From assembly GCA_965232815.1 (NCBI GenBank), contig OZ247427.1:2201602-2265601 (forward strand): a stretch of DNA of 64,000 nt, read 5' to 3'. A program made the position numbers and the translations under genes. The notes beneath the pieces are model-generated. The model was not told the DNA's origin. It saw only the letters and a list, made by a program, of their open reading frames with translations, and did no database searches. This stretch comes from Dehalococcoidia bacterium (GTDB lineage Bacteria; Chloroflexota; Dehalococcoidia; Lucifugimonadales; UBA3495). Positions within the stretch are counted from its first letter, which is position 1, and each line of letters starts with the position of its first letter. Of this stretch, positions 9,809-39,973 are shown in pieces.

Positions 9809-11257
9809 ATGGGACTCAAACGCCTTCTGCTAAAACCGCTTTCCGGCTATCCCGGTGGCTACAAGAAAATGCGCCGGGGAACCCAGGGTTTCGACTCGAC
9901 ACCACCTTTCAAGGTCCCTGACAATCCCAGGGACCGGCGCAGCCGCATTCCTCCGACCGGTTTCAAAGAATATTGGTATCCGGCCCCGCCGGAGAAGGAC
10001 GTCAAGAAAGGCGAGCCCGCGATGTTGCGGATGCTGGGAAGCGACGTGGTCTTCTTCAAGGACAAGCAGGGTGAGGTTCAGGCCTTGCTGGACTGGTGCC
10101 CGCATCGTGCGGTTTATCTCTCCATGGGCCGCTGTTATTTCGAAGGGTTCCTGACCTGTCCGTACCACGGCGCCACCTTTGACGGTGATGGCAACTGTGT
10201 CGCATTCCTCACTGAGGGCCCCGACTCCAAGATGGTCGGTGCGCCCGGCATGAAGGCCAGGAAGTTTCCCACCGTGACGCTCAAGGGAATGGTTTTCGTC
10301 TGGATGGGCGAGGGTGAACCCGTGGAGCCGGAGGAAGACATTCCTCCCGAAATGTTCGAAGAGCACAATATCTGTCGTCCGTCATTCGACATGTTCGACT
10401 GCAACTGGGTGCTCGTCCTTGAGAACACCATGGACGCCCACAATGCCTTTATGGTTCACCGGAATGCTCTGCGCATCCTGGGCAGTCGGGTTGGCGGGCG
10501 GCCCCGGACCCCTTTGGGATACCGGGTCAACCTCGTCAACAACAAGAACGTTCACTACCGGCCGGGGAGTGGGAAGTCCTCCGTGGAGAAGTATTATTAC
10601 GATGAGGACGGTAACATCCCCTACCAGATGTACTACCCCGGCGTGGATGGCGTCTGGCCCCTGCACCGTTGGCGTCTCCTCTGGACGTGGTACTTCGATT
10701 GGAAGGCCCGGCGCAAAGGGCAGGACCCCAACTACCGTCGAGCCACGGGCGCCAACACACCCGACCTGAATGAATGGAACGGCACCCGCCTGCCCGGGAT
10801 GTCGCGCACCGGCGGCAACAACCGGTACTTCCGCAGCACACGCTGGCCCGTGCCCGTTGAGGACAATCTCACCCGCATGGTGTACCTCAACGTGGAACGC
10901 TACGAAACACGCCCCGGATTCTTCCGCCGTTTGGTCCGCGGAGCCACTTGGCCCTACCGCAACTGGGAGCTCAATTTCAACTTCCGGAACCAGGACTACG
11001 ACGCCGAGAAATACACCCAGTACGACATGCCCGAGTACCTGTCATCCACCGATTCGGTTGTCGTGGGCATGCGCCGGCTCTTCGCAGACCACAACCGCGA
11101 TGTGATCCGCCAGCGCGAGCGCGAGGAGGTCCTCCCCGAGGTCATCGAAGAGAGCGAAGCCGAACGCATGGTGCGGGAAGGTGACCTCAAGGTAGCATCG
11201 ACGACCGAGGCATTCGATGCTGACCGACTGGAGCAGGAGCTGATGCGCCGCGTCTAA
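9809..11257 (+). CDS. Rieske [2Fe-2S] non-heme iron oxygenase (PAO/Tic55-like alpha subunit)
   Basis: Rieske motif CPHRAVYLSMGRCYFEGFLTCPYHG (CxH-x17-CxxH) and iron-site-like ENTMDAHNAFMVH. The start could be the internal Met at 9869. Confidence 0.85.
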   Translation: MGLKRLLLKPLSGYPGGYKKMRRGTQGFDSTPPFKVPDNPRDRRSRIPPTGFKEYWYPAPPEKDVKKGEPAMLRMLGSDVVFFKDKQGEVQALLDWCPHRAVYLSMGRCYFEGFLTCPYHGATFDGDGNCVAFLTEGPDSKMVGAPGMKARKFPTVTLKGMVFVWMGEGEPVEPEEDIPPEMFEEHNICRPSFDMFDCNWVLVLENTMDAHNAFMVHRNALRILGSRVGGRPRTPLGYRVNLVNNKNVHYRPGSGKSSVEKYYYDEDGNIPYQMYYPGVDGVWPLHRWRLLWTWYFDWKARRKGQDPNYRRATGANTPDLNEWNGTRLPGMSRTGGNNRYFRSTRWPVPVEDNLTRMVYLNVERYETRPGFFRRLVRGATWPYRNWELNFNFRNQDYDAEKYTQYDMPEYLSSTDSVVVGMRRLFADHNRDVIRQREREEVLPEVIEESEAERMVREGDLKVASTTEAFDADRLEQELMRRV

Positions 11258-11931
11258 CCGTCCTCGCCGTCAGGTAATTCGGGGCAGCGTTACCGCGTTG
11301 ATGCGCGGTCGTTGCCCCGATTCATTTGTGAGAACGCGAAAAACTTCGGCGTGGGTGTGACATTCCCTCGTTGCCGCGTGTTGCCATCGATCCCTATACT
11401 GGATTCATCAGGCGAACAATTGTTTATCACCACGACAAAATCCATGCCAGGGTTTCGGGCCTAGCGGCCACCCAGTCAGCAAAAATCGCATAAAAGGGTT
11501 CCTGTCTGCTAACGTCTGCTTAGCGCATCAGCAGCGTGGCCGTCAGTACCCCAGCGTCAGCCACAGCGTTCCGTGCTGTGTGGCGGGCCGTCTGTAGAGG
11601 CGAGCCAGCCATGTGGGCCACGGTAAATACCGAGCAAAACTACCATGCGTACCAAAACGGCCGCGTGCTGACAACGGCCCGCTCGCAAGAGTCCGCCACC
11701 GGCGGGAAACCCTGGCAAAAGCAAATCAAACCGTTCGCCACTCCATCGCCTGATTCGCCACTCCATTCGCCTGAAAGGAGCCAGACCGGAAACATCACAG
11801 ATCAGAGAGATAAGGGCGGCATTCCTGCCTGATATGCCGCCGTTCCTAAACCGCGCACGTGATTACCTGGAGGTGTCGCCAAAGCTTGTCGTGCTTGTCG
11901 TTGCACTGGAGATTCGGAACCCGGGTCTCCT

Positions 11932-28439: not shown

Positions 28440-28970
28440 ACCTCCCGGAACAGGCCAATATCGCTGCGGATCCCATCATGCCTGAACAGATACACAAAAT
28501 AATCTGGAAGGAGAAATATGATGCTGGATGAACTCCTGAACGCAGCGGGTGCGTTACCTGACCGCGAGTGGGGCCACCGGTTCGGCTGCCCGCCTGCCGG
28601 TTCGGCTGCCCGCCTGAAGGCTGCCACCTCAAAGACAAGACTGGCGTCACCCGGTACTGCAAAGACCAGCGCTACGAGAAGCCCCAAGGCAAGTTGTTGC
28701 GGATAGTGGGCCTGCTGCCCCGCTGCTCAGACGAGTGGAAAACCGAGTACAAAAAGCGGACGACGGACGATGGAGCGGCACTTCAGCAGCGTGAAGCATA
28801 GTCGGCTGATGAACCAGCGCCGCAACTTCAACATCATTCAAAGGTTTTCTACTCATGCCATCAGCGTAACCGACGTCCCATCCTCACCCCAGGAACCATC
28901 CCCGCACGTTTGGCCCGTTGTCACACACCCTCTAAGCCAGCTACTGTGGCAAAATGCCGTCCATGAGTAA
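28440..28970 (+). pseudogene. C-terminal remnant of a DDE transposase, multiply frameshifted
   Basis: Pieces in three frames: ...GHRFGCPP(E)GCHLKDKTGVTRYCKDQRYEKPQGKLLRIVGLLPRCSDEWKTEYKKRTT, then (M)ERHFSSVKHSRLMNQRRNFNII. This resembles the conserved C-terminus (YxKRxxxERxFSxxK) of IS4/IS5-superfamily transposases. No N-terminal half is present. Confidence 0.5.
28577..28616. repeat. perfect 20-bp tandem duplication (CCGGTTCGGCTGCCCGCCTG x2)
   Basis: Copies at 28577-28596 and 28597-28616. Removing one copy fuses ORFs 28518.. and 28568.. into one frame. Confidence 0.95.
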
Positions 28971-31900
28971 GCCGAGCTTCAAGCAAATCACCGAGGACTA
29001 CTTCACGACGCTGCAGCAAGTCGGACGCTCTGGCGGCGCGACCGGTGAGCGTTCTCTGTATGGCCCCCTCGCCAACCTGCTGAACGCAGTAGGAAGCACG
29101 CTGAGACCAAAGGTCTTCTGCGTCCAGGAACTCGCCGACCAGGGCGCAGGTCATCCCGACTTTGGCCTGTACACGACGCGGCAGGTGCAAAAGGGCACTC
29201 CGAAATCGGGGCAAAAGCCGGAACGCGGGGTGATAGAAGTCAAATCAGTCGAGGACGACGCACGGCTAACTGCCCAGAGTGACCAGGTCGCCGGCTACTG
29301 GCTGGGTTACCGGCAGGTGCTGGTGACCAACGCGCGCGACTTCGTGCTGGTGGGCGAGGACGCCGCCGGCAACCCGGTCCGCCTGGAATCCCTGCGGCTG
29401 GCGGATTCGGCGGCGCAGTTCGACGCGAAGCTGGAACATCCGATGGCCTTCGCCAACGAGGTCGGCCCCGGGCTGGGCGAGTACCTGACCCGCGTGCTGT
29501 CCCACGCCGCGTCGCTGTCCGAGCCGAAGGACGTGGCGTGGCTGCTGGCGTCCTACGCCCGCGACGGGTTGGCAAGGGTTGAACATGCCGGCGATGCCAC
29601 GTCGCTGGCCACATTGCGGCAGGCGCTTGAAGATTCGCTGGGGGTGCAGTTCGACGGCGATCAGGGCGCGGCTGTCTTCCGGTCCACACTGGTGCAGACC
29701 CTCTTCTACGGCGTCTTCTCCGCCTGGGTGCTGTGGGCGCGGCAGACACCCAAACCGGACGGCCTCTTCAACTGGCACGACGCGGTCTGGCATCTGCGGG
29801 CGCCGGTGCTGCGCGCGTTGTTCCAGCAGCTATCCGACCCCGGGAAGTTGCAGCCGCTGGGACTGGTGGAGGTGCTGGACTGGACCGCCGCCGCGCTCAA
29901 CCGGGTGGAACGGGACGCCTTCTTTGCGAAGTTCAGCGAGGGCGAGGCCGTGCCCTACTTCTACGAACCCTTCCTGCAGGCATTCGACCCCGACCTGCGC
30001 AAGCAGCTTGGCGTCTGGTACACGCCCGCCGAGGTGGTGCGCTACATGGTGGCGCGAGTGGACAAGGCGCTGAAAGACGACCTTGGCATCCCCGACGGGC
30101 TGGCCGGCGAGAACGTGTACGTGCTTGATCCCTGCTGCGGCACCGGCGCGTACCTGGCCGAGGTTCTCCGCCGCATCGCCGCCAACCTGCGGGACAAGGG
30201 ACTCGGCGCGCTCACCGGCGCGCAGGTCAAACAGGCGGCCACCCAGCGCGTCTTCGGCTTCGAGATCATGCCGGCCCCCTTCGTGGTGGCGCACCTGCAG
30301 GTCGGCCTCGCCATGCAGGAATTGGACGCCCCGCTGTCCGACGACGGCGACGAACGGGCCGGCGTCTTCCTCACCAACGCGCTGACGGGCTGGGAGCCCA
30401 CGGTGCAGAAGCCCCTGCCCTTTCCCGAACTGGAGCAGGAACGAGAGCGCGCCGAACGGGTCAAGCAGGACACGCCGGTGCTGGTCATCCTGGGCAACCC
30501 GCCCTACAACGGCTTTGCCGGCATGGCCGTAGACGAGGAACGCGAACTGTCCCAGGCCTACCGCACCACCAGGCAGGTACGGCGTCCCGAAGGCCAGGGG
30601 CTGAATGACCTCTACGTGCGCTTCTTCCGCATGGCCGAGCGACGCATCGCGGAGAAGACCGGCCAGGGCGTGGTGTGCTTCATCTCCAACTACTCTTGGC
30701 TGGACGGTCTCTCCTTCACCGGCATGCGCGAACGCTACCTGGAGGCCTTCGACGCCATCCGCATCGACAATCTGCACGGCGACCGCATCATTTCAGAGTA
30801 CGCGCCTGACGGGCACACCAGCGAAACGGTCTTCGCATTGCAGGGGCAATCTCCCGGCATCAAGGTCGGCACGAGCATCACGCTGCTATCCAAGTCATCG
30901 GCGGCCGAATCAAAGGACAAACGCATCCTGTACCGTGACTTCCATCAGGCGCGGGCGGACGAAAGGCGTATGGCTTTGCTGCGAAGTCTTGAGGCCCCCG
31001 ACATTGATTCAGGCTATTCGCCAATGAACTGCAACCTTTCCCTGGGTTTGCCGTTCAAACCCATGGCGGTCAGCGACGGTTGGCAGGACTGGCCATCGCT
31101 GCCGGATTTGTTCCCGACGTCATTCCCGGGCGTGAAAACCAGCCGCGACGGTTTCTTGGTCGACGTTGACCTCGACCACCTGCAGCATCGAGTCGCTGAC
31201 TACTTCAACGCCGACCTGGGCCACGAAGAGATCACGCGCCGCTATCCCGGCGTGATGAAGCCCACCGCACGGTTCAACGCCCGCACCGTCCGCGACCAGT
31301 TGGTTAAGTGCGGCGGGCCGGCCGAGGACGGTTTCGTCCGCTATGCCTACCGTCCGTTCGACAACCGCTGGCTCTACTGGGACGCCGATGGCACGCTGCT
31401 GGATCGCCCCCGCGCCGATTACAAGCCGCACGTTTTCGAGGGGAACTTGTGGCTGGTGGCCCAGCATAAACCGCGTAGGGAATGGGGATCAGCGCAAGTC
31501 ATCACCCATATGGGTTGCATTGACCTGATGGACCGCAGCGCCACCTGCACCCCAATGTGGCTTTTGGACGACGGCCTCGACATCGACGGTACTGACTCGC
31601 AACACCGCCCCAACCTGTCGCTCGCCGCGCAACACTATCTGGGACGCCTGGGGTTGGGCGCTGAGGACCTGTTCCACCACGTCATCGCCACGCTGCACGA
31701 TCCCGAGTACCGCACCACCAACGCCGGCGCCCTGCGCATGGAGTGGCCACGCATCCCGCTGCCCGGCTGGCCCGACGGCGACGCTCACGGCGCGGCTGAT
31801 GCACTGGCGGAATCGGCGGCGCGAGGCCGGCAGTTGGCCGCCCTGCTGGACTCCGATACCCCCGTCGCCGGCGTGACCACCGGCGCGCTGCGTCCCGAAC

Positions 31901-32316
31901 TCGCCGCCATCGCCGTGCCCACGACGACGGACGGCGGCAACATGGCGGGCGAGGACTTCGTGGTGTCCGCCGGCTGGGGACACTTCGGCACGGGCGATGC
32001 CGTCATGCCTGGCCAGGGCAGAATCGTGGAACGCGACTACACGGACAAGGAACGAGCCGAGCTGACCGACGCCATCCCGACGCTGCACGACACCACCTAC
32101 GACGTGTATCTGAACGACCGTGCCTACTGGCGCAACGTCCCCGCCGCCGTCTGGAACTACCAGCTCGGGGGCTACCAGGTTCTCAAGAAGTGGCTGTCCT
32201 ACCGCGAGAGCAAGGTGCTGAGCCGCCCTTTGTTGCCGGAAGAAGTTCAACACTTTACGGACACGGCGCGACGGATCGCTGCGATCCTAAAGGTGACGAA
32301 ACAGCTTCAGAACTGA
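28954..32316 (+). CDS. single-chain restriction-modification-like enzyme: N-terminal PD-ExK nuclease-like domain + gamma-class N6-adenine DNA methyltransferase + Type-ISP-like C-terminal specificity domain
   Basis: HPD(69)F...GVIE(95)VK(97)S, WYTPAEVVRYMV, motif I VLDPCCGTGAYL, motif IV ILGNPPYNGF, and the C-terminal YRPFDNRWLYWD and VWNYQLGGYQVLKKWLSYRE. No helicase domain. Confidence 0.8.
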   Translation: MPSMSKPSFKQITEDYFTTLQQVGRSGGATGERSLYGPLANLLNAVGSTLRPKVFCVQELADQGAGHPDFGLYTTRQVQKGTPKSGQKPERGVIEVKSVEDDARLTAQSDQVAGYWLGYRQVLVTNARDFVLVGEDAAGNPVRLESLRLADSAAQFDAKLEHPMAFANEVGPGLGEYLTRVLSHAASLSEPKDVAWLLASYARDGLARVEHAGDATSLATLRQALEDSLGVQFDGDQGAAVFRSTLVQTLFYGVFSAWVLWARQTPKPDGLFNWHDAVWHLRAPVLRALFQQLSDPGKLQPLGLVEVLDWTAAALNRVERDAFFAKFSEGEAVPYFYEPFLQAFDPDLRKQLGVWYTPAEVVRYMVARVDKALKDDLGIPDGLAGENVYVLDPCCGTGAYLAEVLRRIAANLRDKGLGALTGAQVKQAATQRVFGFEIMPAPFVVAHLQVGLAMQELDAPLSDDGDERAGVFLTNALTGWEPTVQKPLPFPELEQERERAERVKQDTPVLVILGNPPYNGFAGMAVDEERELSQAYRTTRQVRRPEGQGLNDLYVRFFRMAERRIAEKTGQGVVCFISNYSWLDGLSFTGMRERYLEAFDAIRIDNLHGDRIISEYAPDGHTSETVFALQGQSPGIKVGTSITLLSKSSAAESKDKRILYRDFHQARADERRMALLRSLEAPDIDSGYSPMNCNLSLGLPFKPMAVSDGWQDWPSLPDLFPTSFPGVKTSRDGFLVDVDLDHLQHRVADYFNADLGHEEITRRYPGVMKPTARFNARTVRDQLVKCGGPAEDGFVRYAYRPFDNRWLYWDADGTLLDRPRADYKPHVFEGNLWLVAQHKPRREWGSAQVITHMGCIDLMDRSATCTPMWLLDDGLDIDGTDSQHRPNLSLAAQHYLGRLGLGAEDLFHHVIATLHDPEYRTTNAGALRMEWPRIPLPGWPDGDAHGAADALAESAARGRQLAALLDSDTPVAGVTTGALRPELAAIAVPTTTDGGNMAGEDFVVSAGWGHFGTGDAVMPGQGRIVERDYTDKERAELTDAIPTLHDTTYDVYLNDRAYWRNVPAAVWNYQLGGYQVLKKWLSYRESKVLSRPLLPEEVQHFTDTARRIAAILKVTKQLQN

Positions 32317-32329
32317 GGACGGCTCAAGA

Positions 32330-33003
32330 ATGATCTACGATGTACAGAGACTGGTGAAGAACTGTCTCACGGCGTTGCCCGTGGCCTGTGAAGGCGTTTC
32401 AATCGAGGCTTTGGAAAACCGCATACCGACAGACCTCCTCGGAGGGCGTCAGCCTACTTTTCGTTTAGAGGGTGTTCTCCGGCCGGCTGGTTGGTACCAG
32501 CGCCACCATGGACTACTGGGTGGTGGATTGGAGCTTCAGGCCAGAAGGTGCTACTGCACCGCGGAAGCCAGACAGGGGAAGCCAGACAGGCTTGTCAGGA
32601 TCGCAAGAGCATCCCTGCATCGAGTGCGTTGCCGGAAATCACCACAGACTACGAAACCAACCTGCAGGCGGCCTTCTGGAATTGGGTATGCAATCGGCAG
32701 GCGGGCGACAACCCACGAGGCGACTTCATTCGGGACACCAGGGATCTGCTGAGGGTAGGCAGAGATTCACCGGACGAAGTGCTCGAGAGCGCCTGCGCAA
32801 AGGCAATCGAAAAGTACCTCACCCTCCGCACCCGCTGGGCGGCTGAGGTTGGTGTCCATCCCTGGGACTGTACCCCGCTTGACGGCAAAGCGAAGATCAA
32901 GGGATCTGGATGGTACTACTGCTGCTCGCAGTGCGACAACTGCGACTGCGACGGCGTGAGCGGGTGCAATTGTGGCTGCAATAACTGCTCAACTGAAGAA
33001 TGA
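32330..33003 (+). pseudogene. Cys-rich-tailed small protein gene split by a 14-bp tandem duplication
   Basis: The ATG is 13 nt after the RM stop. The frame changes at the duplication, and the downstream frame runs to the stop at 33001-33003 and ends GSGWYYCCSQCDNCDCDGVSGCNCGCNNCSTEE. Removing one repeat copy gives one 219-aa ORF. Alternatively, only the distal part is a real gene. Confidence 0.45.
32563..32590. repeat. perfect 14-bp tandem duplication (GGAAGCCAGACAGG x2)
   Basis: Copies at 32563-32576 and 32577-32590, read directly from the sequence. Confidence 0.95.
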
Positions 33004-33057: not shown

Positions 33058-33809
33058 ATGCAATATCACCTGGACCTGTTTACTCCTGAGACATGGCAGG
33101 CCTTCACAGAAGCTGGAGCAGCATGCACAGGCGCGGAGCCCGACTACGACGCGTAGCCCGACTACGACGCGTAGCCAACGAACGAGTCAAACCGGGAGAC
33201 ATCCTCCTCTGCTACATGACGCGCGTATCCCGCTGGTGCGGTGTGCTGGAAGTCGAATCCGGACCTTTCGAAGACGATACTCCGAAGTTTGGCGCCACTG
33301 ACCCGTACCCAATCCGGTTCAACGTCAAACCAGTCGTCATCTTGAACACGGAGTCGGCGGTACCCATACGAGACCCACAGGTCTGGCCGGCTTTAACCAT
33401 CACCAACCGGCTCGAGCCTGGCAACCCTTACTGGACAGGATTCTTCAGGCAATCCCTGAATACCTTCGACGACGACGACGGGAGTTTCCTGGTGGATCTT
33501 CTCAAAAGACAGCAGTCAGGCCCGGAAGCGTACCCGCTCACCGACCAAGACCGGCGTCGGCTCAACCGGAGGCAGAGAGTCCGTACACTGACAGGAGAGG
33601 TTGATGTCAGCATCCCAGACGCTGAGGATGAAGAACTCTCACCTGAATCGAGAAACGCAGAATCGGACCAACGGACCAACTACCAGGAATCCATCCAATA
33701 CCAAGCGAAAGTAGCCCAAATCGGCGTCGAAATGGGATTCCATGTCTGGGTGCCGAGAAGCGACAAAGTGCGGGTCATGGAACTCCTCCAGCCGGCAGCA
33801 CATGAATAG
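33058..33809 (+). pseudogene. PUA/EVE-like domain protein with the beginning of a restriction-endonuclease-like domain; frameshifted and 3'-truncated
   Basis: MQYHLDLFTPETWQAFTEAGAACTG (frame of 33058, stop at 33154-33156) continues logically as ...RLRRVANERVKPGDILLCYMTRVSRWCGVLEV in the frame of ORF 33093. The ORF ends at ...IQYQAKVAQIGVEMGFHVWVPRSDK, before any D...ExK core. Confidence 0.5.
33137..33172. repeat. perfect 18-bp tandem duplication (AGCCCGACTACGACGCGT x2)
   Basis: Copies at 33137-33154 and 33155-33172. It encodes ARLRRV twice in the 33093 frame. Confidence 0.95.
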
Positions 33810-33831: not shown

Positions 33832-33888
33832 GGCCCGGCATCAACGCTCGTTGCGAAAAACCCGTTGTCGTCCACCCCCCGAAAAACC
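33832..33888 (+). repeat. left copy of a 57-nt imperfect direct repeat bounding the XRE-ImmA/TIR cassette
   Basis: GGCCCGGCATCAACGCTCGTTGCGAAAAACCCGTTGTCGTCCACCCCCCGAAAAACC aligned by hand against 38088-38144 gives 52 of 57 identical positions. Confidence 0.8.
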
Positions 33889-34404
33889 GGCTTTGCCTAA
33901 AAAGTCTGCGCGACGGGTCAGTTTTCGGACAAGTTTGAGACTTTTTGGGCAGAGGCAATCTTCGTGAACTCGACTGTGAGACCGAGACTGTAGATCGACC
34001 GTATCAGAACATACAAATTGTTCGCGAGAAGTTTGCAGAGCACCGCGTTGGCCTGACTTGACGGACGAGCCGGGAAACAGGGCAGGGATGTGTTGGTGAT
34101 GCCTGAGGTGGCGGAGGACCAAAAACGGTAAAGCCCCACCCCTGACATTGTTACCCTGCGTCGGGGAGACCTGCTCAACCGCGGGTCTCCCCGATTTGCT
34201 GTGAGAGCCACCGAGGTTCTCAAAATCGCGGATTCGTCGGGTTTCAGGAACCGTCTCACGTTGGGAGCGAGAATCGCTCAGTGCCATCTGCCCACGGAAG
34301 GGACTGGTTGGTCACACCCATACGGCCTATGGGCCCCGGTCGGTCTTCTCAATGGCAGATGGCGTACTCCATTGTATTGCGATCGTCCACAATCGTTTTG
34401 CCTG

Positions 34405-34433
34405 TTGACGAAGAGGTCGCCCCGGCATAGAAT
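34405..34433 (+). promoter_or_regulatory. sigma70-type promoter (TTGACG - 17 nt - TAGAAT)
   Basis: -35 at 34405-34410 and -10 at 34428-34433, 68 nt upstream of the ATG at 34501. Confidence 0.55.
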
Positions 34434-34460
34434 TGGGCATAATATTGTTGCTCTTGGTAA

Positions 34461-34480
34461 AGCCTTGAACTCTCAAGGCT
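34461..34480 (+). promoter_or_regulatory. perfect 8-4-8 palindrome AGCCTTGAactcTCAAGGCT between promoter and RBS (candidate operator)
   Basis: Read directly from the sequence. It lies in the 5' UTR of the operon that encodes an XRE-type HTH protein. Confidence 0.45.
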
Positions 34481-34500
34481 GACGCATAACGGAGTGGTTT

Positions 34501-35082
34501 ATGGTACCAGCCCGAATTGAAATCGAGATGGACGACGCCTGCGCGATTTTGGACCCGTTCCTGCCGCGGTGCGTGGACATCCTATTGGACTTTATGGATA
34601 AGGTTAACTCCCCACAAATGGCCTCCCTGCGCGGTTCCATGGGACGCCGCACGTTCTGCTCGTTGCTGGCCGATGATTTTTATTCCCAAATGGAGCAGGC
34701 ACCAGAGCACGGAGTCCGTTTCGAGCGTCGTCAAGACAAAGGCCAGCATTTCATTGTGTTTCAGGATCTTCTGGCCCTTCGAGTCAAACAGATTGGCAGG
34801 CAATATCTTTCATGGAATCTGCCGACCACCCATTCGCTGCGGTGGAACCTCGGGTTGCCGTCTCCAGAGATCGGCCCGCTTCCTACGCTGGAATTGGGGT
34901 ACCATCTGGACGCCCTGATGAATGGCTACCGCGGCATCCACCTCTTGCAGCGGTTCGAGAAAGTCGTGGATTGGCGTCAGCAGATTTACGGTGTCCAAAC
35001 CGATGCCTTCGACACCGAGCAACCGCGACTGCATGGCTTGGGCGGCAGCCGTAAGGTATACCGGTATAGACCGATCCGCTAA
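34501..35082 (+). CDS. hypothetical protein (193 aa), first gene of the cassette operon
   Basis: GGAG RBS about 9 nt upstream, and the stop is 11 nt before the next ATG. No motif recognised. Confidence 0.6.
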   Translation: MVPARIEIEMDDACAILDPFLPRCVDILLDFMDKVNSPQMASLRGSMGRRTFCSLLADDFYSQMEQAPEHGVRFERRQDKGQHFIVFQDLLALRVKQIGRQYLSWNLPTTHSLRWNLGLPSPEIGPLPTLELGYHLDALMNGYRGIHLLQRFEKVVDWRQQIYGVQTDAFDTEQPRLHGLGGSRKVYRYRPIR

Positions 35083-35093
35083 CACTGGATGCG

Positions 35094-36455
35094 ATGATGA
35101 CTTCGAAAAGCGTCAACCCTCAACTGATCCAATTGGCTCGACAATCGCGTGGCCTGACCCAAACCGCGCTCGCTGCAGGTATTGCGGTGGGCCAGTCCAT
35201 GATCGCCAGGTACGAATCTGGCGTGAAGGATGTGCCGCTCGACCACCTCAACAGGTTGTCCGAGGTTCTGGATTATCCGGTTCGTTTTTTCACTCGCCCG
35301 ATGGGCCGGGCCGGGTCTGGAAGTGAGATATTCCACCGCAAGCGAGCCCGGGTCCCCGCCAATGTCCTGGGGCGCAACTACGCAGACGCCACGATCCGGC
35401 GGATGGAGATCGACGCCCTGAGAGAATCTCTGGATGGGGTGTTCCCCTTCCCACCTTTTCCTTTCTATCCAATCGAGGAATTCGAGTACGACGCCGAGAA
35501 AATCGCCCGAACAGTCCGCGCTGCGTGGCGACTGCCGGACGGTCCGGTCTTCAACGTCACCAGGACGGTTGAGGAAAATGGCGGCATCGTTGTGGCTCAC
35601 AAGTTCGACTCACGTATCGACGGCTTCGGCTGCCGCACGCTGGGGCTTCCACCGGTCTTTCACCTCAACCGCGACCTCCCGCCAGACCGTTGGCGTTGGA
35701 CGCTGGCCCACGAGATCGGCCACATGGTGATGCACGTCGAAGCGGGCCAGCCCCATAATGAGGCGGAAGACCAAGCGCACCGGTTCGCGGCAGAGTTTCT
35801 TTGCCCTGCATACCAGATAGAGCCGCAATTACGGGGGCTGAACATGGGAAAGTTGGCCCCATTGAAAATGCAGTGGAAAGTATCCATGGCAGCGTTGGTC
35901 AAAAGAGCCAACGACGTGGGAACCATCGACGCCAAGCAGTACAAATCGCTGATGGTGCGGTTATCCCAACAAGGGTACCGAACCCGGGAGCCCTCCAATC
36001 TGGACCCACCAGAAGAACGCCCTACCTTACTGTTCGATCTGGCTCAGTATTTTGAGCAAAGCATGGAGTTCTCTCGCTCTGAAGTGCTGGCGCTGCTCAA
36101 CATCGGCGAGACCGATTTCTGGACCTACTACCGGGACCCGGACGACATTTTCGGCGACATTATGGGGCAACCGTCCCAAGGACAAGGAGACAACGACGTG
36201 TCCGAACAGGTAGCGCATTTGCGCCTGCACGCAGGAGCCCCACCGGTTCACCGCCAACTGGGATGCGCTCCTGAGGATGTGGGACGAGACCAAAAGTTGC
36301 TGGACGCTCTCCATCTTTTGCAGATGGAGAACATATTACCGGAGCGGTTGGTGGAAGCCAGCGAGGAACGGGTACGCTCCAGAATTGAGACCACCCATAA
36401 TAGGCAACGTTTCACCGACGACCTGGATAGGCTCTACGGTTCCGATTATCAGTGA
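35094..36455 (+). CDS. fused XRE-family HTH / ImmA-IrrE (M78, COG2856) zinc metallopeptidase with about 100-aa C-terminal extension
   Basis: The HTH QLIQLARQSRGLTQTALAAGIAVGQSMIARYESG, followed by the HExxH site LAHEIGHMVMH and EDQAHRFAAEFLCP. Confidence 0.85.
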   Translation: MMTSKSVNPQLIQLARQSRGLTQTALAAGIAVGQSMIARYESGVKDVPLDHLNRLSEVLDYPVRFFTRPMGRAGSGSEIFHRKRARVPANVLGRNYADATIRRMEIDALRESLDGVFPFPPFPFYPIEEFEYDAEKIARTVRAAWRLPDGPVFNVTRTVEENGGIVVAHKFDSRIDGFGCRTLGLPPVFHLNRDLPPDRWRWTLAHEIGHMVMHVEAGQPHNEAEDQAHRFAAEFLCPAYQIEPQLRGLNMGKLAPLKMQWKVSMAALVKRANDVGTIDAKQYKSLMVRLSQQGYRTREPSNLDPPEERPTLLFDLAQYFEQSMEFSRSEVLALLNIGETDFWTYYRDPDDIFGDIMGQPSQGQGDNDVSEQVAHLRLHAGAPPVHRQLGCAPEDVGRDQKLLDALHLLQMENILPERLVEASEERVRSRIETTHNRQRFTDDLDRLYGSDYQ

Positions 36456-36720
36456 TAAGGCAGACGTCACCCCGCCGTCATAATCGGTCCCAAATCGGTG
36501 GAGGCGGGCCTTCAACCGACTGGGACCAAGCCTTGGTTACAGCGAGAACGGAAACCATGTTGAGTGATTGAAGGCGGAACTATCTGCCCGCACTGCATAC
36601 GCAATTTTCAATTGCCATCCTCGCCGAGGACCCTCTTGGAGTTATGGATGAGTCGCCACCGTGAGGCGCGGGATCCGTCGGTGACCGACCGTAGGGCTGC
36701 TGTTTCATGAGAGAGGTGTT

Positions 36721-37638
36721 ATGTACAACCTTTTGGTGGTGAACTACGACGACGCCCCCAACTACTGGGAGAACAATGCCACGCGATGGGTACGGGCATT
36801 GCCACAGGGATGGGGACTCAATCGCATGCCGGGACGAGAGCGATGGGACGAGCTACGGAAACGTCCCTGTCTCTTTACATACGAACTCAAACCGCCCGCG
36901 GTTGTAGGGCATATCGGCGAAATCGTAGATGTGGACTTTCCAGATATCAAGTACGAATTGGAAGACAGTATTGAAATCAGTCGCGACTGTCTCCGCGACC
37001 TTGGCTTCAAAACCGGTGATGAACATAGAACGCAATGGATCGAGAAAGAGGATGTTGACCTGTACAAAGTCGTAACCAAATGGCGACGGGAGGAATGTAA
37101 CGTCCGCCCCTTGCCCACAGAAGCAGAAAAGAGGCGGGTATGGGGGAACGATTACCTGTGGAAGCCTCGGTTGTTTTTGAGCCACCGTGCAGCATATCGC
37201 AGCAAAGTTTCGCAAGTGAAAGTGCTGCTGGAGCATGCAGGAGGCGCCTGCTTCGTCGCTCACGATGACATTGAGCCCGGCTCCATCTGGCATGACGAGA
37301 TCATCCACGCCTTGGATACCATGCAGGTATTCATCGGATTCATAACCGACGATTTCCATACAGGAGGTTGGCCCGACCAAGAAGTCGGGTATGCACACCA
37401 GAGGGGAATCCCGAAAGTCTTCCTGAAGTTAGGACAATGCGATCCTAGAGGCGCGGTGGCTATTGAACAGGCATTGTCTGCGAACTGGAATAACGCAGTT
37501 GCTAAACTGATCCTACATTTGCGCGAGAGCGGACTCATGCCCAAACAAGGGCCAGCATGGCCTTTGCCGAAAGACGAGGATCGCCTGCCGTGGGAACCCT
37601 ATATTGACGAGCACGGGTCCTTCCACCCTCCTGCATAG
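36721..37638 (+). CDS. TIR-like domain protein with unknown about 150-aa N-terminal domain
   Basis: The C-terminal half RLFLSHRAAYRSKVSQVKVLLEHAGGACFVAHDDIEPGSIWHDEIIHALDTMQVFIGFITDDFHTGGWPDQEVGYA follows the bacterial TIR pattern (FLSH...K..., W..eI..al, S.W..qE.g.a). RBS GAGAGAGG. Confidence 0.65.
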   Translation: MYNLLVVNYDDAPNYWENNATRWVRALPQGWGLNRMPGRERWDELRKRPCLFTYELKPPAVVGHIGEIVDVDFPDIKYELEDSIEISRDCLRDLGFKTGDEHRTQWIEKEDVDLYKVVTKWRREECNVRPLPTEAEKRRVWGNDYLWKPRLFLSHRAAYRSKVSQVKVLLEHAGGACFVAHDDIEPGSIWHDEIIHALDTMQVFIGFITDDFHTGGWPDQEVGYAHQRGIPKVFLKLGQCDPRGAVAIEQALSANWNNAVAKLILHLRESGLMPKQGPAWPLPKDEDRLPWEPYIDEHGSFHPPA

Positions 37639-37899
37639 AACGACGACTACTGCCTGATGGTTACGCCTAGACCAACATCCGAAGTGCGGCGTGCGGATGG
37701 CCGGCGACCAACCTGCGGCGATCTAATCGGCCCGCTCGCAACTCGACGGCCGATGATGTTGTGGGTCATCGTCACCCTGTCCCCAAATCGGGTGAACTGT
37801 CCGAAAATTGCTATTACGGGACAAAGCCTGTGAGCGCACGATTTCTGATATGAAAGACCTGCGGTACTTTTTGGGCAGAACGAGACTTTATAGGCAAGG

Positions 37900-38296
37900 C
37901 CTGAAAAACCCCCTTCGAGGCCCTCAAAACGCCGGTTGAGGCCCCGAAAAACGCCGGTTGAGATCGCCCAAATCCGCGATTTCGTCGTCTGTCCCGGCGC
38001 TGGACATCGCGCTCATCCGGGCGACTGGCGGCAGGTGGTCCGATCCTCTTCACTCCAATCCTCCTCATCTTTGACCGGGTACCGGTGGGCCCGGCGTCAA
38101 CGCTCGTTGCCCAAAATCCGTCGTCGTCCACCCCCCGAAAAACCCCCGTCGAGGCCCTGAAAACGCCGGTCGAGACCCTGAAAAACGCCGGTTGAGATCG
38201 CCCAAGTCCGCGATTATTGTCGTCTGTCCCGGCGCTGGACATCGCGCTCACCCGGGCGAGTTGCGGCCGCTGGTCCGGTTTTCCTCATCTCCAATG
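37900..38296. repeat. two tandem copies (period about 234 bp) of a unit that opens with three 21-22-nt iteron-like subrepeats (CCCYSAAAA(A)CGCCGGTYGAGR)
   Basis: Subrepeats at 37900-37920, 37921-37941, 37942-37963 and at 38133-38154, 38155-38175, 38176-38197. Each set is followed by the conserved TCGCCCAARTCCGCGATT...GTCTGTCCCGGCGCTGGACATCGCGCTCA. Confidence 0.85.
38088..38144 (+). repeat. right copy of the 57-nt direct repeat
   Basis: GGCCCGGCGTCAACGCTCGTTGCCCAAAATCCGTCGTCGTCCACCCCCCGAAAAACC; see 33832-33888. Confidence 0.8.
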
Positions 38297-38383
38297 AAAC
38301 GGGAATCCGGTCAGTCCCAATCGCAGCATGCCTCACCCCTGCGCCTGCCGGTGGCGGCGCCGAAACGAATCATCCCCGCGCGC

Positions 38384-38411
38384 GTAGGGGCAAATAATCA
38401 TTCGCCCTTAC
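38384..38411. repeat. GTAGGGGC...GCCCTTAC hairpin (family 1, degenerate copy)
   Basis: gtaggggcaaataatcattcgcccttac, upstream of moaD. Confidence 0.6.
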
Positions 38412-38533
38412 ACCGTCGCCAATACAATGTCCGGCGTGCCAAGCGCCGGAAACGCCAAATACCTACCCCTGACAGCCCCGAGGTTTGCCGTCGCATTGAC
38501 ACCGTGGTACCGCCAGCACATAATCTAGCCGCC

Positions 38534-38785
38534 ATGCGTTTTGATGTTCGATTGTTTGCCCTGTATCGTGAGCGGGCCGGGGCGTCGTTGGTGACGGTGG
38601 ATTTGCCCGACGGCGCATCGGTTGGAGACCTCACGTCGGCAGTGCGGGTTGACTATCCGCGGCTGGCGCCGCCTGAGGTTCGGATCGTGGTGGCAGTGAA
38701 CGCAGAATACGCGGATGATGACCAGTTGCTTCAACCGGGCGACGAGGTTTGCCTGATCCCTCCCGTAAGCGGAGGACGCGGTTAG
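38534..38785 (+). CDS. moaD: MoaD/ThiS family sulfur carrier (molybdopterin synthase small subunit)
   Basis: The internal ATG at 38534 gives an 83-aa protein (MRFDVRLFALYRERAG...CLIPPVSGGRG) with the near-C-terminal GG. The upstream part of ORF 38192 is a translated repeat. Confidence 0.8.
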   Translation: MRFDVRLFALYRERAGASLVTVDLPDGASVGDLTSAVRVDYPRLAPPEVRIVVAVNAEYADDDQLLQPGDEVCLIPPVSGGRG

Positions 38786-38791
38786 CGGAGG

Positions 38792-39280
38792 TTGCTAACG
38801 ATGATTATCCTTACGGACGAACCGCTGGACCCGGCGGCGGTCACCGACTCGGTGCGACGGGACGGCAACGGAGCGGTGGTCACATTTCTGGGGACAACCC
38901 GGGACAATTTCGGGGGGAAGACCGTCACGCGGCTGGAATACGAAGCGTATGACGCGATGGCGATCAAGAAAATGCACGAGGTGAGGGACAGCCTGCGCGC
39001 GGACTATGGCATCGAGGATATCGCCATCGCGCACCGGACGGGCCGGGTGGACGTTGGGCACATCAGCCTGGTGGTGGCCGTGGCGTCGCCGCACCGGGTG
39101 AAGGCGTTTGAGGCGTGCCATGAGGCGGTCAACCGCATCAAGACGATCGTGCCGATATGGAAGAAGGAGTGGTTCGCCGACGGTTCACGCTGGGTGGCTT
39201 GCGAGGACCACGAATTCGCCGACGAGGCGGAGCACCGACATGCCCACGCCGAACGGCACGCGGTGACTACCGGAGACTGA
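38792..39280 (+). CDS. moaE: molybdopterin synthase catalytic subunit
   Basis: GAVVTFLGTTRD, IAIAHRTGRVDVG, VVAVASPHR and PIWKKE motifs. Confidence 0.85.
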   Translation: MLTMIILTDEPLDPAAVTDSVRRDGNGAVVTFLGTTRDNFGGKTVTRLEYEAYDAMAIKKMHEVRDSLRADYGIEDIAIAHRTGRVDVGHISLVVAVASPHRVKAFEACHEAVNRIKTIVPIWKKEWFADGSRWVACEDHEFADEAEHRHAHAERHAVTTGD

Positions 39281-39334: not shown

Positions 39335-39973
39335 TTATCGCAGGCCGTCGAGCAGGTGGACGAGGATCGTGCCTGATTCGAGGTCGATGCGCTGGATGAC
39401 CTGGGAGATCGCGGGCAACAGGATCTCGGGGCCGGATTCGCTTTTGACCACGTAGACGTCGTTGCTCCCGGTGACGAGGATTTCGCGGACGGCGCCGAGG
39501 TCCTCTCCCTTGTCGGTCAGGACGGACAGGCCGATCAACTGGTAGTGATAGTATTCGCCGGGCAGCAGATCGTCGGTGGGTCCGACGGGGGCAAAAATCC
39601 ATTCGCCGGCCAGTGATTGGGCTGCGGATGGGTTCAAATCACGCAAACCCAAGAGCGCCTGGCCGTTGGGCATGGCCTGGTGGGAATCGATAACCCTGGA
39701 TGCGTCGCCGACGGTGATCGATTCACCAACGGTGAACCGGTTCGGGTTGTCGGACAGGGATTGGATCCTCAGGATCCCATCGAGGCCGTGGGGACGCAGC
39801 ACCCTGCCGACGAGGACACAGCCTGCGGGGGCCTCGGGCTCCGGTGAGGCCGAGGGCGGATTCCCAGGAGGCTTGTTGCCCCGGGAAGCCGGCCGGCGTC
39901 CGCGACGTCGGGGCTGACGGGGGCTAGACAATCTCCAAGACGGCGCGGGTTCCGTCCTTGACCGCGGCGACAC
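39335..39973 (-). CDS. rimM: 16S rRNA processing protein RimM (with Pro/Arg-rich N-terminal extension)
   Basis: GRVLRPHGLDGILRIQSLSDNPNRF and the PRC-barrel part GEYYHYQLIGLSV...SNDVYVV. The GTG start overlaps the KH gene by 50 nt, and no in-frame alternative start was found downstream. Confidence 0.8.
   Translation of the reverse strand: MSPRSRTEPAPSWRLSSPRQPRRRGRRPASRGNKPPGNPPSASPEPEAPAGCVLVGRVLRPHGLDGILRIQSLSDNPNRFTVGESITVGDASRVIDSHQAMPNGQALLGLRDLNPSAAQSLAGEWIFAPVGPTDDLLPGEYYHYQLIGLSVLTDKGEDLGAVREILVTGSNDVYVVKSESGPEILLPAISQVIQRIDLESGTILVHLLDGLR

Follow-up and report, generated by a model that had tools for sequence, protein, structure and literature searches.

What is the function of a gene pair whose second member fuses a DNA-binding domain to a metallopeptidase, whose first member resembles no annotated protein, and which stands in front of a gene for a TIR protein? 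This question is raised by a segment (positions 34405-36455) of the 64,000-nucleotide (nt) stretch of Dehalococcoidia bacterium DNA analysed here, hereafter the window, in which an open reading frame (ORF) of 193 amino acids (aa), ORF-A, is followed by one of 453 aa, ORF-B. A sequence-only reading made earlier had described a promoter, a palindrome, a ribosome-binding site, the 193-aa ORF, an 11-nt gap and a 453-aa XRE/HEIGH protein with an extra C-terminal region, all of which are present where it had placed them (Table 1), and had proposed that the whole may control the downstream TIR gene. The comparison of related loci reported below leads to another answer: the segment is probably an independent toxin-antitoxin (TA) or abortive-infection module of the RosmerTA type, made of two genes and horizontally mobile, in which ORF-A would represent a new toxin family. 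RosmerTA systems consist of a Zn-peptidase antitoxin, RmrA, and a toxin whose function is unknown, RmrT, and the rmrA deletion is untransformable (10.1101/2022.05.11.491447).

Conservation of the two genes as one unit

In every locus that was looked up, a homologue of ORF-A lies directly upstream, and on the same strand, of a gene encoding HTH_3 and Peptidase_M78 domains, and the distance between the two is -17 to +41 nt. The sample comprises about 16 independent loci from Chloroflexota, Firmicutes, Proteobacteria, phages and one plasmid. Hence the co-occurrence of 193-aa homologues with XRE-M78 genes, without which the sequence-only reading would have been given up, is observed at every locus examined. 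The closest loci with the pair (L001/2, L004 and L005/6) are from Dehalococcoidia, and the related-locus search with the alignment of close homologues returned four loci only, all of them Dehalococcoidia metagenome-assembled genomes. Three further loci, L007, L009 and L011, found through antitoxins about 50% identical to ORF-B, carry the pair as well, their upstream ORFs being 23-29% identical to ORF-A with pairwise E values of 2e-13 to 2e-21, and so do L016, L017, L019 and L021, which were found through distant members of the predicted toxin family (profile E 1e-19 to 1e-5).

The pair is also present in Acinetobacter phage vB_AbaM_ABMM1 (L025, gp30/gp31), in an A. baumannii replicon, in the mobilizable Polaromonas plasmid pH1NP1 (L027) and in Gordonia phage Howe (L052, gp35/gp34), and in all four the partner is RmrA-like by PADLOC. 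A tblastn search of the phage and plasmid collections with ORF-A and the family members P0217 and P0270 gave nothing, the annotated records being reached by the more distant P0181 and P0202. The phage and plasmid records label the two proteins 'hypothetical protein' and 'XRE/HTH DNA-binding protein', a RosmerTA-type annotation being apparently missing, and a tyrosine integrase/recombinase adjoins the pair in Howe and in pH1NP1. Furthermore, the two genes have changed together: across 14 loci the identities of the predicted toxin and of the antitoxin core are correlated (Pearson 0.86), the toxin evolving faster, with 72% identity in the nearest relative versus 92% for the antitoxin.

The limits of the unit were read from nucleotide alignments of the window with the orthologous loci. 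Similarity begins at 34423-34483 and stops at 36451-36457, which is the stop codon of ORF-B, while the flanks differ in each orthologous locus and contain, among others, HsdR, restriction-modification (RM) genes of the MmeI type, transposases, integrases, HamA, rpsO-pnp and SufBD. With nucleotide homology confined to 34423-36457, the module is compact and measures about 2 kb. In L007/L008 the pair sits between a Rieske-protein gene and rpsO-pnp in a large genome, and three tandem PaREP1-family paralogues (9926-11341) lie near the module.

ORF-B, an XRE-M78 protein of the RmrA type

All 14 PADLOC models of RmrA match ORF-B, the best with an E value of 1.9e-57 over aa 7-342 of a 363-position model, whereas the matches to capP (2.6e-12) and capH (7e-4) are far weaker. 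The sequence-only reading had pointed out that Xre-COG2856 pairs were predicted as TA-like modules, and this assignment of the pair is supported. At E<=1e-10 ORF-B has 603 homologues. Across 18 aligned homologues, H206, E207 and H210 of the HEIGH motif (aa 206-210) as well as E234 are invariant, and the metallopeptidase site is therefore intact. The NCBIfam model of the spr1629 antitoxin scored far under its cut-off on ORF-B, and no sequence relative was found in the PDB at E<=0.01.

Beyond the part covered by the RmrA models, ORF-B continues for about 100 aa (residues ~350-453), which include a conserved module, LxLxxGAPPxHxQLGCxPEDVxxxQxxLDALxLL, at aa 376-409. This module is present once in the ORF-B homologues of 446-458 aa and twice, in tandem, in P0052 and P0076 (521-523 aa), and hence the HxQLGCxPEDV...LDAL element behaves as a repeatable unit. 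It is missing from partners of 348-365 aa, which still pair with the predicted ORF-A toxin family; the module is thus accessory, clade-specific and dispensable for pairing. The ORF-B orthologue of L006 (8573-9920) is broken into two ORFs, of 303 and 157 aa, downstream of an intact toxin-like gene; this break reflects either a real C-terminal frameshift or an indel error of a 10x long-read assembly.

ORF-A, the 193-aa partner

The sequence-only reading had found no recognisable motif in ORF-A, and this description stands: the protein belongs to a conserved but unannotated family. A word-indexed search returned 11 close homologues only, 57-88% identical and carrying no name or domain. When 1.84 billion cluster representatives were searched with a profile, the family grew to 310 clusters (50% identity) at E<=0.001, nearly all of 180-215 aa, whose public label is 'hypothetical'. 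Neither ORF-A nor 105 members of the family matched Pfam, NCBIfam or PADLOC, the last of these even at E<=10, and the family profile had no sequence relative in the PDB, where only apolipoprotein noise was returned. The sole library match is PHROG 15813, of unknown function, to 40 of the 105 members.

In the alignment of these 105 sequences W158 is invariant, and R94, K96, N106, T109, Q118, G133 and Y134 are conserved in at least 90%. Position 137 is D in 77 sequences and N in 22, and the position of D89 is D or E in 70. The AlphaFold2 model built from the same alignment is confident, with a predicted local distance difference test score (pLDDT) of 93.3 and a predicted template modelling score (pTM) of 0.88; it replaced a poor model (pLDDT 54.6) based on 12 close homologues alone. 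In the confident model, four helices form an N-terminal bundle (aa 10-65), after which comes a beta domain of six strands and one helix (aa 74-164). As had been proposed with the sequence-only reading, the predicted structure was then used as a query for related folds, and Foldseek found nothing significant in either the PDB (best E 0.2, template modelling (TM) score 0.31) or BFVD, where the best E was 0.22. The matches at the top of the lists, weak as they are, tend towards nucleases of the PD-(D/E)xK type: ThaI, PvuII, NlaIV, FokI, a Cas4-like protein, TSEN, Hjc and VRR-NUC, all with E>=0.2 and TM<=0.34. Membership of ORF-A in the PD-(D/E)xK nuclease superfamily was considered and is not claimed, since the catalytic motif is missing: the strand motif is R94-x-K96 where (D/E)-x-K would be due, and no acidic residue is invariant, for which reasons ORF-A is not filed as a nuclease. 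Given the R-x-K/N/T/Q/Y/W patch on the beta sheet and these weak nuclease-like fold matches, our best guess, made with low confidence, is that ORF-A may have a nucleic-acid-directed, metal-independent activity. Moreover, ORF-A contains no hydrophobic segment, which sets it apart from RmrT(D5) of phage Kita, a toxin that depolarises membranes.

Several results weigh against the interpretation of ORF-A as the toxin of a RosmerTA module. The PADLOC models of RmrT match neither ORF-A nor the 105 family members nor the phage and plasmid members, even at E<=10. As a positive control, the same models do match phiCD27 orf71 (PDLC03930, 1e-78) and gp40 of Escherichia phage Tritos (PDLC03933, 7.5e-10). 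A remote homology between the ORF-A family and the Tritos-type RmrT was tried by profile-profile comparison and rejected, hhalign giving a probability of 0.1%. Residue 118 of this copy of ORF-A (window 34852-34854) is G where 98 of the 105 family members have Q, and this copy may thus be attenuated as a toxin. G118 is also found in fragment P0006, which is 88% identical, and the change from Q to G takes two nucleotide substitutions. A search of the literature library found no mechanistic study of neutralisation by RmrA. Finally, we infer from sequence the toxicity of ORF-A, its neutralisation by ORF-B and a part in anti-phage defence. The missing RmrT matches together with the working control and the hhalign result make the ORF-A family distinct from the modelled RmrT toxins. 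Since RmrT is heterogeneous by definition, this still allows a RosmerTA type of system with ORF-A as a new toxin family.

A different role for the partner has also to be considered, in which ORF-B would be a regulator of immunity or of a switch in a mobile element, as a fused ImmR/ImmA or a LexA-like self-cleaving repressor, and ORF-A a non-toxic sensor, anti-repressor, substrate or co-factor. The recombinases beside the relatives in Howe and in the Polaromonas plasmid and an antirepressor gene near the pair in ABMM1 are in line with such a role, as is the fold of ORF-A, which has no toxin-like match; Xre-COG2856 proteins may be generic regulators (Makarova et al. 2009, PMC2701414), and over-expressed COG2856 proteins were non-toxic in S. 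pneumoniae (PMC4257102). The pneumococcal result, however, concerns the protease and not the partner protein, and the RmrA family has been assigned experimentally as antitoxin. In addition, the window and most of the loci have no integrase, excisionase or phage gene set that could be regulated, the conserved unit consists of two genes, and the promoter and operator candidates lie ahead of the pair itself, an autoregulated layout that is typical of type II TA systems. We therefore regard a non-toxic ORF-A beside a switch regulator as improbable.

The TIR gene as a separate cassette

The TIR gene is on the same strand as the pair, 265 nt downstream of ORF-B. No TIR gene stands beside the pair in any of the about 16 independent loci. 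Conversely, a 94%-identical TIR protein is encoded in two metagenome contigs (L023 and L024) without ORF-A and ORF-B; their similarity to the window is limited to 36665-37773 (95.5% nucleotide identity), the remaining flanks being unrelated. As the homology blocks 34423-36457 and 36665-37773 are separate, the pair and the TIR gene are two independent neighbouring cassettes. Thus the pair as a self-contained unit with a novel partner, as the sequence-only reading had it, holds, while the co-occurrence of three genes, with the TIR gene as the third, which it had proposed to check, is not seen.

It had further been suggested that ORF-B, as a damage or infection sensor of the CapH/CapP kind with ORF-A as an accessory, would repress the TIR gene. 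No terminator-like site was found between ORF-B and the TIR gene, so that read-through transcription into the latter is possible, although specific control finds no support. The weak capP and capH matches and the recurrence of the palindrome's upstream half-site AAGCCTTG within a second palindrome ahead of the TIR gene also speak for this model. The half-site AGCCTTGA is nevertheless found four times in the window against 1.3 expected, and the second palindrome, whose relevance had been left uncertain, falls between the two cassettes, in a junction of 210 nt that is part of neither, and has 6-bp arms of a kind common by chance. Between 36456 and 36720 there is no copy of either operator candidate described below, the tandem repeat or the first palindrome, even with 3 mismatches allowed, and the homology of the module ends at the stop codon of ORF-B. 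Moreover, the helix-turn-helix (HTH) and protease domains are fused here, unlike in CapH/CapP. In light of the TIR cassette occurring alone and of the pair occurring without it, the TIR-regulator model is largely refuted by the comparative data, and we consider it highly improbable.

The TIR protein gave no domain match in its N-terminal ~150 aa. In NCBIfam it resembles, only weakly, the TIR regions of a retron-TIR protein and of Thoeris ThcB4. No repeats flanking the 1.1-kb TIR cassette were found.

Promoter and candidate operators

A scan of the 4-kb region showed promoter-like sites to be no commoner than in shuffled sequence. In 8 orthologous upstream regions of the close clade the -35 element TTGAC is invariant and the -10 element CATAnAAT is conserved, and GCGCATAnCGGAG is nearly invariant in the orthologous upstream alignments. 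A 12-nt tandem direct repeat, which the sequence-only reading had missed, overlies the -10 box. Its consensus CATA(A/G)AA-N5-CATAAT occurs once only in the window (0.03 expected); in the roughly 230 kb of loci fetched, all its occurrences are just ahead of toxin-like genes. With up to 2 mismatches the repeat is present in 9 of 16 independent loci compared to 0.4% of random 150-nt windows; L007, L009, L011 and L016 are among the nine, and in these four the DNA around it can no longer be aligned. Other tandem repeats of 11-12 nt are found in more distant loci, e.g. GGAATAAttttt-GGAATAA in L019. Over 15 loci the summed direct-repeat score is 111, whereas dinucleotide shuffles gave 94.1 +/- 2.7 (maximum 103), and for 10 of the 15 loci a period of exactly 12 nt scores best. 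In L011 (4364-4415) a unit of about 26 nt, GTGCATAAAATAyrGCATAATTGCCA, is doubled in tandem to give four half-repeats, and in L013 and L015 one repeat has been lost by a short deletion; the copy number of the candidate operator thus varies between lineages.

The sequence-only reading had instead taken the perfect palindrome in the 5' untranslated region (UTR) for the operator. This palindrome, of 8+8 bp, is the sole copy in the window even with 3 mismatches. It is perfect only here: L001 has two compensatory changes and one T-G position, L013, L014 and L015 have an inverted repeat in a shifted register, and L004 and L005 pair at 5 of 8 positions only. The distant loci with a conserved tandem repeat have no such palindrome. 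In the covariation analysis 57-64% of the cells were paired, and in neither register did the count exceed that of the controls, whether shuffled or slid; RNAalifold predicted no structure for the 5' UTR alignment, in part because one sequence was mis-registered. As RNA the palindrome folds into a hairpin in the 5' UTR without sequestering the Shine-Dalgarno sequence; the fold z-score is -1.66. Since the tandem repeat is conserved across distant loci and the palindrome is not, the tandem repeat over the -10 box would be the more likely operator candidate.

Three points stand against the tandem repeat as operator. The two repeat units could be nothing more than -10 boxes that overlap. Inverted rather than direct repeats are the usual targets of XRE HTH proteins, whose dimers normally recognise palindromes. 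The exact motif GTCATAAAANNNGTCATAAT has 22 matches in viral contigs, none of them beside a module; these matches are ascribed to chance, and the motif alone therefore does not predict the system. The binding habit of XRE dimers favours the alternative in which the palindrome, and not the tandem repeat, is the operator, acting as a roadblock downstream of the transcription start, or is an mRNA-stabilising 5' hairpin. Its perfection and uniqueness in the window count in the same direction, together with the persistence of some inverted repeat in this position throughout the close Dehalococcoidia clade, where the window and L001 differ by two compensatory changes and the imperfect positions are T-G, which is wobble-compatible. 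Set against this are the failed controls, the empty RNAalifold prediction, the modest fold z-score and the loss of the palindrome in distant loci, and by our estimate chance would give some ten perfect short-loop inverted repeats of 8 bp in 64 kb. We thus hold this alternative to be doubtful, and the role of the palindrome, as 5' hairpin, secondary operator or chance occurrence, is uncertain.

The features of the locus are listed in Table 1. The GGAG of the conserved upstream block lies 6 nt before the ATG of ORF-A.

Table 1. Predicted and observed features of the gene pair and its surroundings (positions in the window).
Feature	Position	Strand	Basis
Promoter, sigma-70-like (predicted): TTGACG 34405-34410, 17-nt spacer, TAGAAT 34428-34433	34405..34433	+	promoter scan, 10/12 matches
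Second -10-like CATAAT	34438-34443	+	sequence
Tandem direct repeat GGCATAGAATTG/GGCATAATATTG, period 12, over -10 box; best candidate operator for ORF-B HTH	34424..34447	+	repeat search
Perfect 8-bp inverted repeat AGCCTTGA-actc-TCAAGGCT, 4-nt spacer, ~+21 to +40 of predicted transcript (5' UTR)	34461..34480	+	repeat search
Conserved block ACGCATAACGGAG ending in Shine-Dalgarno GGAG (34491-34494)	34482..34494	+	alignments of orthologous upstream regions
ORF-A, 193 aa, predicted toxin/effector (RmrT-like by position)	34501..35082	+	unannotated family, ~190-210 aa
ORF-B, 453 aa, RmrA-type antitoxin/repressor (predicted): XRE HTH + linker + M78 Zn-peptidase + helical region + C-terminal extension	35094..36455	+	PADLOC, Pfam
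XRE-type helix-turn-helix, ORF-B aa 12-65	35127..35288	+	Pfam HTH_3, 2.5e-10
Linker motif F80-H81-R82-K83 of ORF-B, candidate autocleavage or regulatory site	35331..35342	+	invariant in 18 diverse homologues
M78/COG2856 metallopeptidase core, ORF-B aa 185-272; HEIGH 35709-35723	35646..35909	+	Pfam Peptidase_M78, 5.2e-13
Clade-specific C-terminal extension of ORF-B, aa ~350-453; module aa 376-409 = nt 36219-36320	36141..36452	+	homologue alignment
Second palindrome ACCAAGcCTTGGT	36525-36537		sequence
TIR gene	ORF 36721-37638	same strand as pair	TIR_2 domain (Pfam, 1.5e-8)

Proposed mechanism

In the scheme that we infer for operator binding, trigger and the target of ORF-A, the XRE HTH of ORF-B most likely represses its own promoter through the 12-nt tandem repeat over the -10 box, while the M78 core and the C-terminal regions of ORF-B would keep ORF-A harmless. 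A trigger such as phage infection would then inactivate ORF-B, probably through its own protease domain and possibly by a cut at the invariant F-HRK linker, which is of hydrophobic-basic character. IrrE cuts DdrO at L106/R107 in a basic loop (PMC6868357), and by likeness to this site the F-HRK linker may be the place of cleavage. With ORF-B inactivated, the operon would be de-repressed and ORF-A freed, which would lead to cell arrest. ORF-A is pictured here as a soluble effector that would act through a conserved polar patch formed by R94-x-K96, N106, T109, Q118, Y134, D/N137 and W158.

A more far-reaching version of this scheme is conceivable but on balance not what we expect. According to it, the ORF-A family would be a toxin with an unseen fold and a new activity centred on the R-x-K / N-x-x-T / Q / Y / W patch, its RmrA partner would be an XRE repressor reading a 12-bp tandem direct repeat in place of a palindrome, and the HxQLGCxPEDV module would serve in infection sensing or toxin docking.

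Comparison with known systems

The fusion of Xre and COG2856 domains next to a toxin was predicted as a TA-like module in 2009 (PMC2701414). More recently the ImmA/Rosmer antitoxin hub (NetFlax node D25) was found to pair with many unrelated toxins, 58% of the pairs being toxin-first, and one phage-borne system of the hub was validated both as TA and as phage defence (PMC10440598). No RefSeq accession of an ORF-A family member was found in the part of the NetFlax supplement covered. The present locus shares with RosmerTA (Millman et al. 2022; Ernits et al. 2023) an antitoxin recognised by the RmrA hidden Markov models (HMMs), in which an XRE HTH is fused to a Zn-peptidase of the ImmA/IrrE-type M78 family in a core of about 350 aa with an intact HExxH...E site. 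It also shares a conserved, co-directional two-gene operon in which the toxin comes first and has no known domain, and an occurrence in defence islands, prophages and plasmids. It differs in that the partner matches no described RmrT model and has no profile-profile similarity to the Tritos-type RmrT, in that ORF-A would be soluble whereas RmrT(D5) of phage Kita depolarises membranes, in the extra C-terminal extension of ORF-B with its repeatable HxQLGCxPEDV module, and in the candidate operator, here a 12-nt tandem direct repeat.

CapH/CapP, ImmR/ImmA of ICEBs1 and DdrO/IrrE of Deinococcus, which the sequence-only reading had named as kin, likewise combine an XRE repressor with a COG2856/M78 metalloprotease, and likely rely on protease-mediated inactivation of the repressor upon a stress or infection signal. 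These, however, are two separate proteins, whereas both domains lie in the single ORF-B, and they regulate other genes (CBASS, excision of an integrative and conjugative element, DNA repair), whereas the conserved unit here is the pair alone, with no linked downstream effector operon. The separate repressor and protease genes and the conserved TIR linkage that CapH/CapP would call for are not found, and the capP HMM score of ORF-B is far below its RmrA scores; an ImmR/ImmA or DdrO/IrrE system would regulate integration, excision or repair genes of its own element, and neither integrase nor excisionase nor phage gene is among the ten ORFs scanned around the pair. The kinship with TA-like Xre-COG2856 modules was thus correctly seen, but RosmerTA, which had not been named, is closer than any of these three. 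Fused Xre-COG2856 proteins whose linked toxins are PIN or RelE (Makarova, Wolf and Koonin 2009; Matelska et al. 2017) resemble the pair in the fused protein next to a toxin gene, in forming a mobile two-gene module and in being predicted TA systems with a protease layer. ORF-A is neither PIN nor RelE and has no match in Pfam or the PDB and no significant structural neighbour.

RosmerTA is a validated anti-phage system whose mechanism is essentially unknown and whose toxins are unrelated to each other, and the locus would add one toxin family to it. The ORF-A family is widespread, with a confident model and few conserved residues open to mutation, and the conserved cis-element together with the linker motif of the predicted antitoxin makes regulation and triggering directly testable. 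The correction of a reading in which an XRE-protease controls a TIR gene matters for the annotation of defence islands. The result extends the known combinatorial TA network and does not overturn current understanding.

The surrounding island

The fraction of guanine plus cytosine is 0.53-0.59 over about 32-38 kb compared to 0.61-0.68 in the flanks. This low value, together with the adjacent type IIG RM gene and the TIR gene, points to an acquired defence island. A scan of ten ORFs from 28.9 to 40 kb showed no integrase, excisionase or phage gene. Directly upstream in the island is a type IIG / type ISP-like restriction-methyltransferase fusion at 28954-32316 (Type_ISP_C 1.5e-43; PADLOC REase_MTase_IIG 2.8e-96), and the ORFs at 32330-32752, 33093-33809 and 33841-34287 (minus strand) have no family match. 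On the other side, moaD/moaE (38192-39280) and rimM (39335-39973, minus strand) lie beyond the end of the island.

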